DNA of 5,698 nucleotides from a virus (Duplodnaviria; Heunggongvirae; Uroviricota; Caudoviricetes): positions 1 through 5,698 of the IMG/VR virus record IMGVR_UViG_2778261176_000002, one strand, 5' to 3'. Below, piece after piece: positions 1 through 5,698 of the stretch (position 1 is the first letter of the stretch; each line of letters opens with the position of its first letter). The position numbers and the translations under genes were made by a program. The notes under the pieces were generated by a model. The model searched no databases. It was not told where the DNA came from and saw only the letters and a list, made by a program, of their open reading frames with translations.

Positions 1-745
1 TCTCGCGCGGATTTGCAGGACTGGTGATGTTCTTGCCGAACATGCAGCCTTTCGCCGTCAGCGACCAGAATTTTTTGATGTTGTTAATCGCGGTACGGCT
101 GTATCGTTCGCGCTGCTCGACGATCCCCAGCTTCACCATCTGGTGATATGCCTGATTAGCCGTAAGGCGGATACCATACTGTTTCAGCAGTGCACTCAGC
201 GACAGCGTAGGGCGACTTGAGCCATCAGGCGCGTCAGCAGGAGCATCAATGGCATAGCGCGGTGCCAGATTCGGTAAGCCAACAGCCTCCTGGAGTTTCT
301 GACAGGCACCAAGCACTGAAGAGTTAGACAGGTTTAATTCCCGGCGCATAAAGTCCAGCAGAATCACACCAGCCTGCATCTTGTCAGCAGCCTGCCCGGA
401 TAATTTTTCCGGTGCGCTGGTTACCATATCGAAAGTACGGATCACCTTCAGATGGAATGCCGGGCTGATCCACATTGTATAGGCATACACCAGTTCCTTG
501 CAGACATACGTTCCCCGTTCATTTCCCCCATGAATCACACTCACCGGGTCAACACCCAAATTCTGGGTGTTGGTCAATTCATGAACAAGCTCAACAGTTT
601 GTTGGCTGGAAAGAAACTTTCCTGGCTCCTTGGTTCTGGCATTTGCACCAGATGCTACTGCTGCGCGATGCAGATCGTTCAGGCTGTAACGCCCATAAGC
701 ATCACGACGAACTTCAATACCATCAATGACCATCAGATTATTCAT
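1..745 (-). CDS. KilA-N domain protein (antirepressor/Bro-like); partial, C-terminus lies beyond the left window edge
   Basis: Hand-translated minus-strand frame starting at ATG 745-743 (MNNLMVIDGIEVRRDAYGRYSLNDLHRAAVASGANARTKEPGKFLSSQQTVELVHELT...GTYVCKELVYAYTMWISPAFHLKVIRTFD...) is open to position 1. The N-terminal ~110 aa fit the KilA-N DNA-binding domain pattern. A GAGGAG Shine-Dalgarno lies 8 nt upstream of the ATG. Not in the ORF track because the frame has no stop inside the window. Confidence 0.7.
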   Translation of the reverse strand, partial: MNNLMVIDGIEVRRDAYGRYSLNDLHRAAVASGANARTKEPGKFLSSQQTVELVHELTNTQNLGVDPVSVIHGGNERGTYVCKELVYAYTMWISPAFHLKVIRTFDMVTSAPEKLSGQAADKMQAGVILLDFMRRELNLSNSSVLGACQKLQEAVGLPNLAPRYAIDAPADAPDGSSRPTLSLSALLKQYGIRLTANQAYHQMVKLGIVEQRERYSRTAINNIKKFWSLTAKGCMFGKNITSPANPRE

Positions 746-764
746 ACTTCGTTTCTCCTCTTAA

Positions 765-1154
765 TCAGGCGGCTGCACCCGCCGTTTTCTCGTACTTACT
801 GATAGTGATCTCGACCTTCCCTTCCGGGATAACCGGTCCCCACTCCACCAGCATTCTTTTCACCTGACTGTCGTCTTCCCACACACCCGCGTGGGTCAGG
901 GCGTCAAACAGCGCCTTGTTATAGTTGTCCAGATCGCGGATCCGGTTATCCGGAGGAAACAACACGATCTCCACTGAAGCAGGTGCCGACGTTGGTTTTG
1001 GCAGACGACGTAACTGCTCAACTATTGCTGCACACGCCGCGCTCTGGAATTTGCGCCCCGCCGCGCTTATCAGGCTCTTACCAGCAAACGCCCCTTTGTT
1101 GGGGTGTCGCCAGTACGTGTTCACGCTGGGCGGGAAAGGCAGGATCAGCTTCAT
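765..1154 (-). CDS. rusA: RusA-family Holliday junction resolvase (crossover junction endodeoxyribonuclease)
   Basis: 129 aa ORF MKLILPFPPSVNTYWRH...RIRDLDNYNKALFDALTHAGVWEDDSQV... shows the N-terminal PxxNxxYR-like motif and the acidic RDLDN / DAL..AG.W.DD core typical of RusA. AGGGAGA Shine-Dalgarno upstream. Its ATG (1154-1152) overlaps a TGA at 1153-1151. Confidence 0.85.
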   Translation of the reverse strand: MKLILPFPPSVNTYWRHPNKGAFAGKSLISAAGRKFQSAACAAIVEQLRRLPKPTSAPASVEIVLFPPDNRIRDLDNYNKALFDALTHAGVWEDDSQVKRMLVEWGPVIPEGKVEITISKYEKTAGAAA

Positions 1155-1222
1155 GCCACCATCTCCCTGACCAGTTTTTCTGCCTGCTGGCGAACCTGCG
1201 CCAGAAAGGCCTCACCACATGC

Positions 1223-1804
1223 CTAAAGTTCATCGCGCCCGATGTAGCTGATTGCCGGTCCCTTCCAAGTCTTGTCAAAAACAGCAATAGCACCAGCGAA
1301 GAAAGCGCCTGTCGGCACCTGCTTCTCATCTTTCGGGATAAACCAGGCAGGCAGTTCAAAACCAATACGCCCGCGAATAAAAGCAATATGATCTGCATCT
1401 TCCGGCCACCACACTTCGCTGGTGGCAGCTTTGATCAGGAAAACATAGCGCCCGCCCTTATCACGCATGGCACTGGCATGCTTCATGATGTAACGCATGC
1501 CGGTGATGTATTGCCCCTCATGCTGACTGGCGCGACTGTATGGTGGATTGCCAAAGGCAGCACCTTTAAGCTCCGCAAGGCGTTCTGACCAGTCACGCGC
1601 CAGCGCGTTGTCTTCCGCCGTGTAATACGCGGCACATTTGGCATTATCACCGTCAGTGAACAGATCCAGAACAAATGGGCCAAACAAGGTGTTAATTCCC
1701 CAGAAAATGCTGTCCGGCGTGCGCCACTGATCGCCCACCTCCTTCAGTTCATGGGATGGTTTGTTCCGCAGCTCCACCAGCGCCTGACAATATTTATTAC
1801 TCAT
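1223..1804 (-). CDS. Phage Dam-type DNA N6-adenine methyltransferase
   Basis: Same frame as track ORF 1223..1849, but started at ATG 1804 (MSNKYCQALVELRNK...) rather than the upstream GTG. Contains the N6-adenine MTase motif IV NPPY (AFGNPPYS). Ends at TAG 1225-1223. A GGGGGC Shine-Dalgarno-like stretch precedes the ATG. Confidence 0.8.
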   Translation of the reverse strand: MSNKYCQALVELRNKPSHELKEVGDQWRTPDSIFWGINTLFGPFVLDLFTDGDNAKCAAYYTAEDNALARDWSERLAELKGAAFGNPPYSRASQHEGQYITGMRYIMKHASAMRDKGGRYVFLIKAATSEVWWPEDADHIAFIRGRIGFELPAWFIPKDEKQVPTGAFFAGAIAVFDKTWKGPAISYIGRDEL

Positions 1805-1896
1805 TAAGCCCCCACGTAAAAAGCATCCGCAATGTCTCCGGAAGTACACCCCGGATGGGCTTCAATGAATTTCTGAACTTCATTCAAAAGACTCAT
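1804..1896 (-). CDS. Hypothetical 30-aa mini-protein (MSLLNEVQKFIEAHPGCTSGDIADAFYVGA)
   Basis: ATG at 1896-1894 lies 2 nt after the initiator stop (TGA 1901-1899) and is preceded by AGGGGGTGA with 5-nt spacing. Its TAA stop (1806-1804) overlaps the methyltransferase ATG as TAATG. Too short for the ORF track; coding status is inferred from coupling and the RBS only. Confidence 0.35.
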   Translation of the reverse strand: MSLLNEVQKFIEAHPGCTSGDIADAFYVGA

Positions 1897-1898
1897 GA

Positions 1899-2840
1899 TC
1901 ACCCCCTGAATCCTGCCGGGATCTGGCTGTAGTCCACGTTGTCGTAACTGGCTTTGAAGTACGGATCTTCGCGTTTTTCTGTGTACGTGCTGACGGACGG
2001 CGATAAGCGCAGGGAAAGCTCATCCCATTTTTCCCGCAGCTTCGACGGGCTGAGCACGTTACGGCACCAGAACGGATCGCGGCTGACGCGGCTGTACATC
2101 TCGCAGATTTGTTTGTGAGTACGACCATCCTGCACACACATCAGGCGAATTTCGTTTGCCCAGGCTGTCCAGTTCGGTTCTTTGGGACGAACCACCTCGC
2201 CGTCACATTCGGCAGCCTGCTCGTACAGGGCGATGATTTTTTTCCAGAGCCACTGTGCGCAGGTCAAATCATCCTGCGTTCCCCACTGGCGCTTTTTAGG
2301 GCTGAATACAACCGCATCAGGATGGCGAGTTAAAAAATCCTGTTCAGCCTTCTGCGTGTCCGGTTGCGAAGCGCCCGGACGAGAAGGTTTTTTATCTGAC
2401 GGATCATGTTTTGATTTTACTGACGGATCCCCGCCAGATTCTGACGGGTGAAAACCCGCTTTTTTGCCAGATTTCGACGCATCAAATTTTGACGGGTCAG
2501 ATTTTGATGCGTCAGATTTTGACGGGTCAGAATCTGACAGTTGAGAAAATGCCGCTGCCTGAAGCTTCGCAACGTTAAGCTGATAAACATTCGACGCATT
2601 GCGGTTACCCTGGCGACGCGCCTTACGCGTTAACCAGCCTTCTGCTTCCAGCCGTGCGATAGCCGTTCTGACGGTACTCATCCCCGCGCCAATCTGGCGG
2701 GCAATGGTTTCAATTGATGGCCAGCACACACCTTCGTCATTACTGAAATCAGCCAGGCGGGCCATAATTGCTACGCTGGATAATTTCATGCCTGACGCTG
2801 CGCAACCATCCCATACATAGCCGGTTAATTTAGTGCTCAT
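1899..2840 (-). CDS. Phage replication initiation protein (lambda O-like role): N-terminal winged-HTH, low-complexity linker, DnaT/primosome-like C-terminal domain
   Basis: 313 aa ORF. N-terminus [13 protein letters not shown]...SIETIARQIGAGMSTVRTAIARLEAEGWL reads as a wHTH. The central linker (SDSDPSKSDASKSDPSKFDASKSG...) is encoded by an iteron-like repeat array. GAGG Shine-Dalgarno 6 nt upstream of ATG 2840. Confidence 0.8.
   Translation of the reverse strand: MSTKLTGYVWDGCAASGMKLSSVAIMARLADFSNDEGVCWPSIETIARQIGAGMSTVRTAIARLEAEGWLTRKARRQGNRNASNVYQLNVAKLQAAAFSQLSDSDPSKSDASKSDPSKFDASKSGKKAGFHPSESGGDPSVKSKHDPSDKKPSRPGASQPDTQKAEQDFLTRHPDAVVFSPKKRQWGTQDDLTCAQWLWKKIIALYEQAAECDGEVVRPKEPNWTAWANEIRLMCVQDGRTHKQICEMYSRVSRDPFWCRNVLSPSKLREKWDELSLRLSPSVSTYTEKREDPYFKASYDNVDYSQIPAGFRG
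2394..2540. repeat. Iteron-like direct repeat array inside the initiator gene; putative phage origin of replication
   Basis: About eight copies of a TGACGG(G/A)TCA-type motif at ~15-16 bp periodicity. The best units are three tandem 15-mers ATTTTGA(C/T)G(G/C)GTCAG at 2486-2530, plus ATTTCGACGCATCAA at 2471-2485 and degenerate copies at 2394-2456. The core TCTGAC-GG-GTCAGA is itself a dyad. Placement inside the initiator linker mirrors ori-lambda inside gene O. Confidence 0.6.
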
Positions 2841-3009
2841 GACCGACCTCTATTTCCCTGAATTTACGACGAAACTGTTCGAGCGGACTGAAGCACTCAT
2901 GCTCATAGCCTTCGCGGAGGTAGATAACCCGTTGTGTTTCCGGCTCCCAACGAATGACTCTGACGGGCACTCCGTAGTGATCTTTGAACCAGCGGTTAAC
3001 TTGTTGCAA
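2830..3009 (-). CDS. Hypothetical small protein (59 aa, TTG start): (M)[58 protein letters not shown]
   Basis: Found by hand-translating the minus strand in the frame offset from track ORF 2850..3188. Strongly protein-like sequence. AAGGAG Shine-Dalgarno at 3023-3018 sits 8 nt upstream of TTG 3009-3007. TAA stop at 2832-2830 overlaps the initiator start by 11 nt. No ATG in this frame downstream of the TGA at 3039-3037. Confidence 0.4.
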
Positions 3010-3188
3010 AGGACTGTCTCCTTCTGCCGGTTGAAATCACCCACAGCCCACTCTGCAAAGCTGTGGGTTACAATTTCCCTGTCACCTGGTACATTCACTG
3101 CATAGCAATACTCCACCTTCGCTTTTCCACCCGGCACAGGAAGCGCAATCAGTTGCGAGCGACGGTAGTGTGTTGTTAAACTGTTCAT
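2850..3188 (-). CDS. Hypothetical protein in the frame coupled to the cII-like gene; likely genuine only in its N-terminal part (about 3188 to 3040)
   Basis: ATG 3188-3186 overlaps the cII-like stop as ATGA; GGAGAA lies ~10 nt upstream. The N-terminal ~50 aa ([52 protein letters not shown]) look protein-like. The C-terminal part (…[24 protein letters not shown]) looks like an out-of-frame read of feature 2830-3009. Confidence 0.3.
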
Positions 3189-3826
3189 GCGTTAGTTTCT
3201 CCACAACCAGAAGCAATCGACGCCACGACGCCCGGAGCTGCACACTCGCGGGCGTTACTCTTTTCCGGCGCACAAAAAACACGAAATAACAGTGTTAAAT
3301 GCTCCTGCCACTTCGCCATTACTTGGTAGCTGTTCTCTTCGATTTGCTCACGCTCAGCCTGATCAATAACTCCATCAGCAGTTGCCTTACGTAAGTACTG
3401 GGAATGCTTGCCAATCCATTCTATTGACTCCATCAGCCGCTGATTAATGTCACCATTGTCAATGTCATCAATGACCACCAGCGGCACAAACACCCCATTA
3501 CTACGACGGGCTATTGCATCCGTTACATGCCTGGTACCACTGGCATCCTGTAAAACCATGGCCCACTCGAGTGGAAAAATTTGATCCCCACCGCTACGCA
3601 GTCTGTTATGCAATTGATCTTTTGCTGGGGTGATATCATCAGATTTATACAAACCAAGAATTTCTGCTGCTTCCTCATAGCCATGAGGTAAATCAGCAAT
3701 CGTTCTTCGTATTGCTGCCACCAGCCATGCTGGCTGTTTATCAACTTTCCATTCAGGTTCTTTACCCACGTTTAAGTCCTCATATCTGTGGTTTCTGTAA
3801 ATCGATTTATCCATTAGATTTTTCAT
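3185..3826 (-). CDS. cII-like lysogeny-establishment regulator (possibly Phage_CP76 / cII-type family)
   Basis: Same frame as track ORF 3185..3883, started at ATG 3826 ([13 protein letters not shown]...); ATG 3814 is an alternative. Sits immediately after the cro-like gene, overlapping its stop, which is the cII position in lambdoid phages. The central segment [24 protein letters not shown] resembles, from memory, the conserved F-P-E-W-L-D block of CP76-type CII proteins; this was not verified by search. No good Shine-Dalgarno, so start may depend on coupling to cro. Confidence 0.55.
3190..3266 (+). ncRNA. Putative oop-like antisense RNA covering the 3' end of the cII-like gene
   Basis: Candidate sigma70 promoter on the + strand: TTGCGA (3153-3158), 18-nt spacer, TAAACT (3177-3182). 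The predicted start is near the cII-like stop and a + strand intrinsic terminator lies at 3228-3266, giving a ~75-nt transcript antisense to the last ~80 nt of the cII-like gene. This matches the lambda pO/oop arrangement. Hexamers are weak (4/6 each). Confidence 0.3.
3228..3266 (+). terminator. Rho-independent terminator-like hairpin with U-rich tail on the + strand (antisense, inside the cII-like coding region)
   Basis: Stem ACGCCCG+GAG (3228-3237) pairs with CTC+G+CGGGCGT (3245-3255) with one bulge; 7-nt loop; followed by TACTCTTTTCC. The reverse complement on the minus strand has no U tract, so the element is + strand specific. Confidence 0.4.
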
Positions 3827-4007
3827 AAAGCTCAGGTTTAAATGGCAACCGTCCGCAAGTTCTATATGCAGCCTCTGCTGCACGTCCTTTTGGAATTAAC
3901 TGGCCAGGACGGTTTCGCCACTGATAAACGGCTTCAGTTGTTATGCCGAAAAAAGCAGCAACTTTCTCAATGCTGCCGAAGTAGCTTTCGATATCGTCAG
4001 TCGTCAT
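3807..4007 (-). CDS. cro: Cro-like HTH repressor (YdaS/Cro family)
   Basis: 66 aa ORF divergent from cI. HTH segment SIEKVAAFFGITTEAVYQWRNRPGQLIPKGRAAEAAYRTCG matches the Cro/YdaS-type pattern. GGAGGG Shine-Dalgarno 4 nt upstream of ATG 4007-4005. Confidence 0.8.
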   Translation of the reverse strand: MTTDDIESYFGSIEKVAAFFGITTEAVYQWRNRPGQLIPKGRAAEAAYRTCGRLPFKPELYEKSNG

Positions 4008-4018
4008 ATGCCCTCCAA

Positions 4019-4035
4019 ACTAAGTTTTGTTAGAT
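4019..4035. promoter_or_regulatory. Operator-like dyad ACTAAGTTTTGTTAGAT (CTAA-N7-TTAG)
   Basis: 17-mer differing at only 2 positions from the site at 4797-4813 on the other side of cI. Overlaps the -10/+1 region of the candidate cro promoter. Confidence 0.5.
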
Positions 4036-4067
4036 CTTAATTATCAATCTATCTTAGGTCAATAAAA

Positions 4068-4083
4068 ACTAAGATTACTTAGT
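4068..4083. promoter_or_regulatory. Operator-like dyad ACTAAGATTACTTAGT
   Basis: Perfect 6-bp inverted arms ACTAAG / CTTAGT around a 4-bp centre; same CTAA-N7-TTAG geometry as the other sites. Lies just upstream of the candidate pR -35. Confidence 0.5.
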
Positions 4084-4104
4084 AATTAAAGAAATGGTGC
4101 TCCT

Positions 4105-4731
4105 ATGGAAACAGTTGGTCAGCGTATAAAAGCTCTGAGAAGGGTTACCAGAACGTCCCAGAAAGAATTGGGTAAATTTTGTGGAGTAAGTGACGTTGCT
4201 GTGGGGTACTGGGAGAAAGACATCAATGTCCCTGGTGGGGAAGCACTTTCAAAATTAGCGAAGTTCTTCAATACGTCAATAGATTACATTCTTTATGGTG
4301 CTGAGTTTGAAGGCAAACTCGTCACAAACATGCGCAGAGTTCCTGTAATCTCGTGGGTGCAGGCTGGGCAGTTTACTGAGTGCAGGACAGCAGAAGTGTT
4401 TAGTGAAGTAGACAAGTGGGTAGATACATCATTAAAGATTGGTGATAACTCATTTGCATTGGAGGTTAAAGGCGACTCCATGACTAACCCTAATGGCCTC
4501 CCAACAATACCAGAAGGCGCAACAGTGATTGTAGATCCTGATGCAGAACCCCGGCATGGAAAAATAGTCATCGCTAGACTTGATGGAACAAACGAAGCCA
4601 CAGTAAAAAAATTAGTTATCGATGGCCCTCAAAAGTTTTTAGTGCCATTAAATCCCCGGTACCCCAACATCCCGATCAATGGTAATTGCCTCATCATTGG
4701 TGTAGTCAAAGGAGTTCAATACGAACTCTAG
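4105..4731 (+). CDS. cI: CI-type prophage repressor: N-terminal XRE-family HTH, C-terminal S24 (LexA-like) autopeptidase domain
   Basis: 208 aa. HTH: TSQKELGKFCGVSDVAVGYWEK. Ala-Gly cleavage-site context VQAGQF. Ser nucleophile in KGDSMTNP and general-base Lys in ATVKKLV, all spaced as in LexA / lambda CI. Divergent from the cro-like gene. Confidence 0.9.
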   Translation: METVGQRIKALRRVTRTSQKELGKFCGVSDVAVGYWEKDINVPGGEALSKLAKFFNTSIDYILYGAEFEGKLVTNMRRVPVISWVQAGQFTECRTAEVFSEVDKWVDTSLKIGDNSFALEVKGDSMTNPNGLPTIPEGATVIVDPDAEPRHGKIVIARLDGTNEATVKKLVIDGPQKFLVPLNPRYPNIPINGNCLIIGVVKGVQYEL

Positions 4732-4751
4732 CTCCCCCTTTTCTCTAACCA

Positions 4752-4781
4752 AAACACCGAACTAAGAAAAGTTTGGTGTTT
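4752..4781. repeat. Inverted repeat AAACACCGAACT-aagaaa-AGTTTGGTGTTT immediately downstream of cI
   Basis: 12-bp arms with one G/T mismatch (G-U in RNA) and a 6-nt loop, 21 nt after the cI stop. Contains a CTAAG half-site. AT-rich stem and poor U-tract make it an atypical terminator; it could equally be a protein-binding dyad. Confidence 0.4.
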
Positions 4782-4785
4782 CCTC

Positions 4786-4814
4786 TTGCTATTAAAACTA
4801 AGTTAAGTTAGATT
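4786..4814 (+). promoter_or_regulatory. pL-like early promoter candidate: -35 TTGCTA, 17-bp spacer, -10 TAGATT
   Basis: Hexamers at 4786-4791 and 4809-4814 on the + strand, pointing into the gene at 4920. The spacer and -10 are overlapped by the operator-like 17-mer at 4797-4813. Confidence 0.4.
4797..4813. promoter_or_regulatory. Operator-like dyad ACTAAGTTAAGTTAGAT (oL analogue)
   Basis: 15 of 17 positions identical to the site at 4019-4035. Located downstream of cI where the lambda-type map places oL/pL. Confidence 0.5.
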
Positions 4815-4919
4815 TTATATCAAAGATAACGAACAGGCAGGACGCCCACGAAGTAGCCCGCCCGGTACGTACGAAGACCGGGATGATTCGTTAGCGGATG
4901 ATTTCAGTGGAGAGAATAG

Positions 4920-5228
4920 ATGAATGAGCAGGATTTGAAGCATGTGATCGCATTGTTGCTGGAAGACGCTAAACGTTTACAGCAGATAGAGCCAAATGCA
5001 GGCACTGAGGCCCGTATTTTGTTAGCAAAACAGGCATTAAAGACTTGCGGGGCGCAAGACCCTGATCGAACCAAGTTCATGAATTTCATGGCTAACACGA
5101 TCACCCCCCTGCCATGCAATGGAGAGAGGGTGAGCCGTGTTTATCACGACACAATGGTTAAGGCATTAAGAATCGAGCTTGATGGGCTTAGGCGTAAGAT
5201 CGTGATGAACAAAATCGTTGCCAACTAA
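4920..5228 (+). CDS. Hypothetical protein, first gene downstream of the pL-like region
   Basis: 102 aa ORF (MNEQDLKHVIALLLEDAKRLQQIEPNAGTEARILLAKQALK...VKALRIELDGLRRKIVMNKIVAN) with GGAGAG Shine-Dalgarno 5 nt upstream of the ATG. Predicted largely helical. No recognisable family and no arginine-rich N-terminus, so it does not look like lambda N. Confidence 0.6.
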   Translation: MNEQDLKHVIALLLEDAKRLQQIEPNAGTEARILLAKQALKTCGAQDPDRTKFMNFMANTITPLPCNGERVSRVYHDTMVKALRIELDGLRRKIVMNKIVAN

Positions 5229-5507
5229 GGAAGCAGACGGAAGTAAGCATGCGCTTTGTTCAAATTTGCAGACAAATATATTTGCGTCAACACCAGCACT
5301 GTTAGCAATGGAAAAAGTTTGATCAAGGATTTGTTGGCAGTTCATTGTGCTTTTGAGGATATATCCCTCTGGAATCAGTCTGCAGCAGCTATCGTCAGAC
5401 TCTTTGATTGTTTTCTGGTACAGAAAGTTAAGCATTAATTCTTCAAATTTTTTGGTCTGTTCGGCTGTTGCTTCAAACAGACGAACGTGAACATAAAACT
5501 GGTTCAT
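5166..5507 (-). CDS. Hypothetical protein, convergent with and overlapping the 3' end of the 4920-5228 gene
   Basis: Same frame as track ORF 5166..5543, started at ATG 5507 (MNQFYVHVRLFEATAEQTKKFEELMLNFLYQ...) because AAGGAA lies 6 nt upstream; ATG 5543 has only a poorly spaced GGTGG. Codon usage looks E. coli-like (CGT, CTG, GAA, CAG, AAA). No recognisable family. Confidence 0.5.
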   Translation of the reverse strand: MNQFYVHVRLFEATAEQTKKFEELMLNFLYQKTIKESDDSCCRLIPEGYILKSTMNCQQILDQTFSIANSAGVDANIFVCKFEQSACLLPSASLVGNDFVHHDLTPKPIKLDS

Positions 5508-5698
5508 TAGGTTTCCTTGCTGGCTGTGTGAGAACTCCAGCATACCACCGAGCCTGAAGTGGTGAAAAGACAGGCAATAGTTTCATTGCTGTGTGTAGTC
5601 TTGGCGCTACCAGCTTGTACCCTTGCTTCCGGCTGGTACCGTCCTTTTTACAAAACAGAGAAGAGCATCACCGGACGACGGGCTCATAACCCAATCCA

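Follow-up and report, generated by a model that had tools for sequence, protein, structure and literature searches.

Putative operators of a P22-type immunity module with a one-base half-site change in an Escherichia coli prophage

Introduction

Positions 1 to 5,698 of the virus record IMGVR_UViG_2778261176_000002 (IMG/VR; Caudoviricetes), a stretch of 5,698 bp referred to here as the window, belong to an E. coli lambdoid prophage, of which they form the early-control region. Short two-fold symmetric sequences (dyads) recur on both sides of a gene for a cI-type repressor in this region. Are these dyads the sites to which the repressor binds, and if so, which immunity do they specify? Judged by sequence, they are very probably the operators of a lambdoid lysis-lysogeny switch of the P22 immC type. 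The region is predicted to be a P22-type immunity module in which one base of the operator half-site has changed, with an operator set not previously described in the literature searched. The two genes at the centre of the analysis are:

3807-4007, minus strand: cro-type gene, 66 aa, P22_Cro family
4105-4731, plus strand: cI-type repressor gene, 208 aa, HTH_3 and Peptidase_S24 domains

Dyads flanking the repressor gene

Four sequences around cI had been quoted in the initial annotation, and a check against the window located each of them exactly where it had been placed:

4019-4035, 17-mer on the cro side: ACTAAGTTTTGTTAGAT
4068-4083, dyad nearest the cI start: ACTAAGATTACTTAGT
4761-4776, weaker dyad after cI: ACTAAGAAAAGTTTGG
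4797-4813, 17-mer on the distal side of cI: ACTAAGTTAAGTTAGAT

The two 17-mers mismatch at 2 of 17 positions, as had been reported, and both differences fall in central bases that are uncontacted in the P22 model. The spacing originally given, CTAA-N7-TTAG, is wrong; the dyad is CTAA-N6-TTAG (14 bp), which is equivalent to CTAAG-N4-CTTAG inside an 18-bp site. Exact cores are present at 4020-4033, 4069-4082 and 4798-4811 and a core with one mismatch at 4762-4775, which bears out the half-site that the dyads at 4068-4083 and 4761-4776 had been said to share. Exact copies occur only in the two intergenic regions that flank cI, and the neighbouring genes are those that had been assumed. The three exact sites, named below, read AACTAAG-TTTT-GTTAGAT (OR1), AACTAAG-ATTA-CTTAGTA (OR3) and AACTAAG-TTAA-GTTAGAT (OL1).

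Three exact dyads were found in the window against 0.052 expected (P of at least three = 2e-4; 5000 dinucleotide-preserving shuffles), and all three lie in 285 bp of cI-flanking intergenic DNA. When only this intergenic DNA was shuffled, 0.019 exact dyads were expected and 0 of 20000 shuffles reached three. Shuffling gave a 15/17 match between one intergenic region and the other in 0.1% of cases. Allowing one mismatch gave weaker evidence: four dyads against 1.55 expected, a number reached in 10 of 200 shuffles. The hexamer ACTAAG occurs five times in the window, four times as the left arm of a predicted operator (OR1, OR3, OL2, OL1). The copy at 5224, at the stop codon of a 102-aa open reading frame (ORF), was rejected as a site; its right arm is absent (3 mismatches).

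Repressor and Cro proteins

The product of cI has the two domains of a phage repressor, HTH_3 (Pfam, E 3.5e-9) and Peptidase_S24 (E 1.6e-27). It is 47% identical to the P22 C2 repressor over 205 aa (E 1e-65). Its N-terminal domain matches the solved N-terminal domain of P22 C2 (PDB 1ADR, 2R1J, 3JXB), and its C-terminal domain is homologous to that of lambda CI (E ~1e-28), with the self-cleavage motifs VQAG (A87-G88), GDSMT (serine S125) and KKL (lysine K168). The recognition helix, S29-D39, is SDVAVGYWEKD. Among characterised repressors, P22 C2 and those of imm21 (DE3, mEp235) come closest, at 47-49% identity, and a translated search of phage genomes returned no CI relative between 60% and 80% identity. 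The Cro-type protein belongs to the Pfam family P22_Cro (E 4e-11), is 30% identical to P22 Cro and has ITTEAVYQWRN as its recognition helix region. The gene order is that of a lambdoid switch: cro diverges from the adjacent cI and is followed by a CII-like gene and an O-like initiator gene.

Architecture of the operator regions

The predicted operators and promoters, and a hairpin that overlaps one of them, are arranged as follows:

4018-4035 (core 4020-4033): predicted operator OR1, 18 bp, AACTAAGTTTTGTTAGAT; exact dyad in the register of P22 OR1
4034-4062, minus strand: predicted early rightward promoter PR for cro; -35 TTGACC (4062-4057), 17-nt spacer, -10 TAAGAT (4039-4034), start near 4026-4028
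4042-4059 (core 4044-4057): predicted weak operator OR2, TATCAATCTATCTTAGGT; two mismatches in the left arm
4047-4075, plus strand: predicted promoter PRM for cI; -35 ATCTAT (4047-4052), -10 TAAGAT (4070-4075), start near 4081
4067-4084 (core 4069-4082): predicted operator OR3, 18 bp, AACTAAGATTACTTAGTA; exact dyad with perfect 6-bp arms
4752-4781, plus strand: 12-bp hairpin AAACACCGAACU/AGUUUGGUGUUU, just after the cI stop, overlapping OL2
4760-4777 (core 4762-4775): predicted weak operator OL2, AACTAAGAAAAGTTTGGT; one mismatch
4786-4814, plus strand: predicted early leftward promoter PL; -35 TTGCTA (4786-4791), 17-nt spacer, -10 TAGATT (4809-4814), start near 4821
4796-4813 (core 4798-4811): predicted operator OL1, 18 bp, AACTAAGTTAAGTTAGAT; exact dyad in the register of P22 OL1

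On the cro side, related two-fold sites begin at 4018, 4042 and 4067, about 2.3 helical turns apart, and appear to form a three-part OR. The two exact sites had already been recognised; the weak site between them had been missed. It is counted as OR2 because it lies midway (24 bp from OR1, 25 bp from OR3), because Rahnella prophages have an exact dyad, CTAATCTTTATTAG, at the same offset, and because the A5/A6 and T columns of its arms are invariant in the alignment of relatives.

Both 17-mers had been said to overlap candidate early promoters. PR is the sole sigma-70-like match of a consensus scan in 3900-5000 (score 9/12); PL, with 8/12, falls under the scan threshold and is placed by the P22 register only. 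OR1 adjoins cro; it takes in the region where PR is predicted to start, together with the final 2 nt of the -10 of that promoter. OR2 overlaps the PR -35 and spacer as well as the predicted PRM -35, and OR3 contains the predicted PRM -10, TAAGAT. The complement of the PR -35, GGTCAA, is nearly invariant in relatives, and the PR -10 that is register-equivalent to that of P22 is TAAGAT. GATAAT (complement of 4040-4045), the same hexamer as the P22 -10, was considered and dropped, as its spacer to TTGACC is just 11 nt. PRM is placed solely by register with the annotated P22 PRM and was missed by the consensus scan; a poor match to consensus would be expected of an activator-dependent promoter. 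The CTAAGAT of OR3 is kept in all relatives, except for the first base in two.

A second set of predicted operators lies downstream of cI at the leftward promoter. OL1 sits between the -35 and -10 of PL, and its core recurs unchanged in the relatives sampled, from Enterobacter through Rahnella. OL2 precedes OL1 by 36 bp. Upstream of OL2, just a lone, unconserved CTAAC half-site was seen near 4745, and it was rejected as an OL3.

Promoter sequences vary among copies. The PR -10 at 4036 is TAAGAT in the window and TAACAT or TAGCAT in most E. coli copies. The PL -35 is TTGCTA in the window, mostly TTGCCA in E. coli and TTGACC in other genera. Both PR and PL of E. coli are farther from consensus than those in other genera.

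Conservation of the operators

Relatives were collected by a CI protein scan with one genome per species (CI 63-90% identical), which recovered prophages in Enterobacter, Kosakonia, Kluyvera, Serratia, Rahnella, Yersinia, Rouxiella, Providencia and Proteus. A motif check in related prophages had been suggested in the initial annotation. Nearly all relatives have exact dyads at the same offsets, about -86 and -37 from the cI ATG, and those that keep the cro-cI-PL layout have an exact dyad about 65-80 bp after the cI stop. Mean column identity was calculated from alignments of 12 relatives for OR and 10 for OL, from 8 other genera. It is 0.97-0.99 in the arms of OR1, OR3, OL1 and OL2 (OR1 99%, OR3 98%, OL2 97%) and 0.86 in the arms of OR2, against 0.70-0.72 in all other intergenic columns. 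The central six bases score 0.68-0.73 in OR1, OR2 and OL2, and 0.87-0.88 in OR3 and OL1.

A closer comparison used 80 E. coli viral contigs with CI 98-100% identical. The OR3 and OL1 cores are invariant in 80/80. Variation lies outside the CTAA/TTAG arms, namely at OR1 position 12, between sites and in the weak OR2; the exception is an OL2 variant, CCAAG, in 5/80. Read on the plus strand, OR1, OR3, OL2 and OL1 all have the best half-site, AACTAAG, as their left arm. In relatives the left-arm G7 is nearly invariant, while the symmetric right-arm position 12 varies freely.

The same repressor/operator pair also occurs in a different architecture. Loci L010-L012, L014 and L023 (Rouxiella, a Serratia metagenome-assembled genome and a gammaproteobacterial metagenome-assembled genome) encode a CI that is 65-67% identical and keep both upstream CTAAG dyads. 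They are without an adjacent cro or OL/PL and have a terminator after cI. Two of them have an extra dyad pair, 49 bp apart, about 440-570 bp upstream.

Comparison with P22, lambda and 434

The nearest known systems are P22 immC and imm21 (phage 21, DE3, mEp235), which likewise combine a repressor of helix-turn-helix and S24 domains with a Cro of the same family. P22 operators are also 18-bp two-fold sites with xTAAG half-sites and a 4-bp A/T-rich centre. Spacings are close: OR1-OR2-OR3 are 23 and 25 bp apart in P22 and 24 and 25 bp in the window, and OL2-OL1 35 and 36 bp, respectively. The promoters of P22 are TTGACT-16-GATAAT (PR), AGGAAT-17-TAAGAT (PRM) and TTGACC-17-TAAATT (PL); the corresponding predictions in the window are TTGACC-17-TAAGAT, ATCTAT-17-TAAGAT and TTGCTA-17-TAGATT. 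PR is placed alike in both: its -35 straddles the OR2/OR3 gap, and its -10 shares the last 2 nt of OR1. In both, too, the PRM -10 TAAGAT is inside OR3 with the -35 in the OR2 centre, and OL1 fills the PL spacer. The OR1 and OL1 centres are 778 bp apart in the window and about 820 bp apart in P22; OL-OR looping is therefore conceivable. These comparisons were made by reading the annotated P22 region and scanning both sequences with an equivalent 18-bp pattern.

The differences are as follows. Operator position 3 (and 16) is T/A in P22 and C/G in the window, where position 2 is relaxed, so that P22 operators of the form ATTTAAG-N4-CTTAAAT stand against aaCTAAG-N4-CTTAGat. The recognition helix is SNVAISQWERS in P22 C2 and SDVAVGYWEKD in the window, with the changes N32D, I35V, S36G, Q37Y, R40K and S41D; Val33 is kept (V31 in the window). 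P22 E44 and N46, which have been implicated in indirect readout (PMC4267663), correspond to V42 and G44 in the window CI. The Cro helix is AVSQW in P22 and AVYQW in the window. The cI leader is about 24 nt long in the window and 4 nt in P22. P22 has an OL3, and no clear OL3 is seen in the window. Neither a boxA/boxB nutL nor an N/gp24-like gene was found downstream of the window PL.

Lambda has the same divergent cI and cro, a three-part OR, a second operator set at PL and a CI C-terminal domain with Ala-Gly, Ser and Lys motifs, and the logic of the switch is assumed to be the same. Lambda operators, however, are 17 bp and of the TATCACCGCCAGTGGTA type, and the lambda OL is about 2.4 kb from OR, compared with about 780 bp in the window. 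Whole-protein identity to lambda CI is about 35%, and the window CI is without the lambda N-terminal arm. Phage 434 operators, ACAA-N6-TTGT, have a 14-bp 4-N6-4 core with uncontacted central bases. The window dyads share this 4-N6-4 layout and differ in the half-site. The 434 repressor is not the closest by sequence, and no 434 entry is among the solved-structure matches to the window CI. The 434 repressor uses indirect readout (PMC3317979).

Half-site and helix specificity

The P22 operator consensus is ATTTAAGATATCTTAAAT, and V33 of the repressor packs on the methyl groups of TTAA (PMC5175364). According to Harris et al., the binding of wild-type P22 repressor to the 3C operator is only non-specific and at least 16-fold weaker (PMC4267663). 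Covariation of helix and half-site was examined at every homologous repressor gene recovered: the 170 bp on either side were searched, without bias, for recurring 5-N4-5 dyads. As a positive control, the search recovers the experimentally known TTAAG for P22. Recurrent half-sites by CI helix are:

VGYWE: CTAAG, best or joint-best in 20/24 loci (window included), second in 3; CTAAT in 1
SQWE (Photorhabdus, Xenorhabdus, P22): TTAAG, 7 loci
VTGWE: GTAGG/GTAAG, 4 loci
ISQLE: ATAAG, 12 loci
IQHLE: ATAAC, 5/6 loci

Among the homologous loci surveyed, no GYWE locus has TTAAG, and no SQWE locus CTAAG, as its recurrent dyad. The divergent Cro helices split alongside the half-site (AVYQW or AFYQW, AVSQW, SV(C/S)GW). 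Such a pattern would be expected of cognate operators in which position 3 is a specificity base.

Neither the half-site ATT(T/A)AAG nor the helix SNVAISQWERS that characterise the P22/phage 21 homoimmune group is found at the predicted operators or in the CI of the window. The region is not assigned to that group because it has aaCTAAG and SDVAVGYWEKD, and because the P22 repressor rejects 3C. The probable immunity specificity that had been proposed for the locus thus gains support, the half-site differing at a P22-contacted base and both the CI and Cro helices covarying with it. The window would define a separate immunity group, heteroimmune to P22/21, since its half-site is C-TAAG (T-TAAG in P22 and phage 21) and both CI and Cro helices are changed.

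A broader generalisation is put forward tentatively. The P22 C2-like repressors may be a natural allelic series in which operator position 3 (NTAAG) is C, T, G or A, set by two to three helix residues (P22 32, 36 and 37; here D30, G34 and Y35), with a parallel S-to-Y change in Cro. Which residue reads base 3 is a matter of speculation.

Alternative explanations

It is extremely improbable that the repeats are not protein sites at all and arose by chance in AT-rich DNA, or as duplicated promoter sequence of PR and PL. The OR region is 29% G+C, the one-mismatch count is marginally enriched, and OR1 and OL1 both abut a -10 element. Shuffles of the same AT-rich DNA, however, never produced three exact dyads. 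OR3, a perfect palindrome, stands clear of the PR elements, at the end of OR nearest cI. Moreover, the arms are conserved while centres and spacers drift, and a different recognition helix in the repressor goes with a different half-site. Recent transfer of identical DNA is not the source of the arm conservation, because flanking intergenic identity is about 71%. This alternative is effectively refuted. The sites might instead be real operators with a specificity that is not distinct, being cross-recognised by P22 or phage 21 repressors, which is very unlikely. The half-sites differ at just 1-2 of 7 positions (CTAAG vs T(T/A)AAG) in an identical design, the P22 valine that packs on the operator is conserved, and the natural P22 OR2 is ACTAAAG..CTTTAGT, so the P22 repressor tolerates some variation. 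These likenesses are opposed by the non-specific binding of P22 repressor to 3C, by the separation of GYWE and SQWE loci in the survey and by the substitutions N32D, I35V, S36G and Q37Y in the CI helix, with the parallel S-to-Y in Cro.

An unlikely but still credible explanation concerns 4761-4776 only: it would be no operator, merely the loop and 3' arm of a cI terminator hairpin, with its likeness to the dyad incidental. The hairpin at 4752-4781 is stable (folding energy -14.8 kcal/mol; z -4.4 vs shuffles) and stands directly after the cI stop codon, with a T-run following it in Kosakonia and Kluyvera. In relatives 80% of its cells are paired, against 34-44% for slid controls, and the right arm of the dyad is TTTG, not TTAG. 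On the other hand, Yersinia proxima, Providencia and Proteus, all without the hairpin, have an exact CTAA-N6-TTAG at the position aligned with OL2. The CTAA and TT.G columns of OL2 are invariant, and the OL2-OL1 distance matches that of P22. Covariation in the hairpin is weak (one compensatory pair; its score was reached by 28/500 shuffles), and the same stretch could act as an operator in DNA and also form a hairpin in RNA. The hairpin is probably the cI terminator, and 4760-4777 is read as an OL2 that overlaps it; operator only and terminator only are possible alternatives.

Several points weigh against the operator assignment and the separate specificity proposed here. OR2, with its two mismatches, is not callable alone, and the hairpin could itself explain part of the conservation of OL2. 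PL and PRM are poor against consensus and were located by homology, not by promoter scan. The strong half-site ACTAAG is always on the plus strand, and the symmetry of the right arms is poorer than in P22, which may reflect different preferences of CI and Cro or overlapping promoter constraints. The helix/half-site covariation is between clades, in about five groups with few independent events. A literature search for the exact operator strings found no match. In the wider literature search, which included P22 immC heteroimmunity, no description of the operator set or the immunity group was found, and the literature on mEp460 consists mostly of prophage-prediction mentions.

A model for the switch

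If the dyads are operators of a P22-type switch, CI dimers would bind 18-bp two-fold sites of the consensus a-a/t-C-T-A-A-G-N4-C-T-T-A-G-a/t-t, each helix-turn-helix reading one xCTAAG half-site, and the A/T-rich central 4 bp would probably be read indirectly, as in P22. CI at OR1, with cooperative help at the weak OR2, would block PR and thereby silence cro together with the replication genes and the cII-like gene, and CI at OL1 and OL2 would block the leftward early operon. CI at OR2 would probably activate the weak PRM. OR3 covers the predicted PRM -10 and start, and its occupation would lead to negative autoregulation by CI and to shutoff of cI by Cro. SOS-activated RecA would stimulate cleavage of CI at A87-G88, leading to prophage induction; the self-cleavage motifs of CI (Ala-Gly, Ser and Lys) are the reason to expect RecA-triggered induction. 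Binding, cooperativity, PRM activation and heteroimmunity are what we infer from this architecture.

Distribution and other features of the window

Over 3800-4920, identity is 98.2% with coliphage mEp460_4F5 and about 95% with phages vB_EcoS-569R4, vB_EcoM-689R6 and Kati. The immunity module is carried by these isolated coliphages and by LLS, and at least 80% of the 1.1-kb immunity region is held by 513/5426 complete E. coli genomes (~9%). Database labels for the repressor are only "LexA family protein" or "repressor cI". Further genes of the window are:

765-1154, minus strand: RusA
1223-1804, minus strand: methyltransferase
1899-2840, minus strand: O-like replication initiator
2830-3009, minus strand: DUF4222 protein (Pfam)
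3185-3814, minus strand: CII-like activator, CP76 family (Phage_CP76)

The N6-adenine methyltransferase frame (1151-1804, minus strand) has an in-frame TAG at 1223-1225, 23 codons before the stop, which overlaps the rusA ATG. The homologue in E. coli 13TMH22 is intact (217 aa). In the window the gene is probably truncated; prophage decay or a sequencing error may account for this. Within the O-like initiator gene, 4.3 tandem 15-bp iterons, CAGATTTTGACGGGT, at 2468-2531 are probably the phage replication origin. The sole Rfam match of the window, mir-5880, falls on these iterons and was discarded as spurious. An Rfam scan of the whole window (E <= 1) gave no known RNA family in the cI flanks.

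Early antitermination of the N/nut-dependent kind was looked for downstream of PL, as boxA/boxB of nutL and an Arg-rich N-like first gene, and these features were not found. No boxA (CGCTCTT) was seen on reading 4815-4919, and the PL leader, 4820-4925, folds no better than shuffles (z -0.4). The first leftward gene, an ORF of 102 aa at 4920-5228 (plus strand), has matches to PHROGs of unknown function only, and none to a Pfam family. It occupies the N/gp24 position and is without an Arg-rich N-terminus. A convergent ORF of 125 aa at 5166-5543 (minus strand) overlaps its end. About 65 bp just after the predicted PL start (4828-4895) are 84-90% identical in phages with unrelated repressors (SfII, SfIV, ST64B, phiNP, YeP1-3 and Pantoea AH07). 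At the core of this segment is CAGGCAGGACGCC, which is similar to ATCAGCAGGACGC, the start of the P22 PL transcript. The segment may mark a junction between modules, or a leader, where the immunity cassette ends on the left; a put- or nut-like antitermination RNA was dropped as a candidate, given the z value of the leader.

Significance

The analysis assigns predicted operators and promoters, and a probable immunity specificity, to an E. coli prophage module. The type of switch is textbook, and the finding refines the annotation with no new mechanism. With the operator/repressor set in hand, homoimmune prophages would be predictable. The module also offers what appears to be a clean natural case in which repressor, Cro and operators change specificity together, one contacted base away from P22; this would be a natural minimal specificity step beside the best-studied indirect-readout repressor. 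If the allelic series holds, the E. coli prophage group would be a minimal one-base immunity step from P22/21, immunity groups would be predictable from sequence, and specificity would be swappable by a few point mutations.

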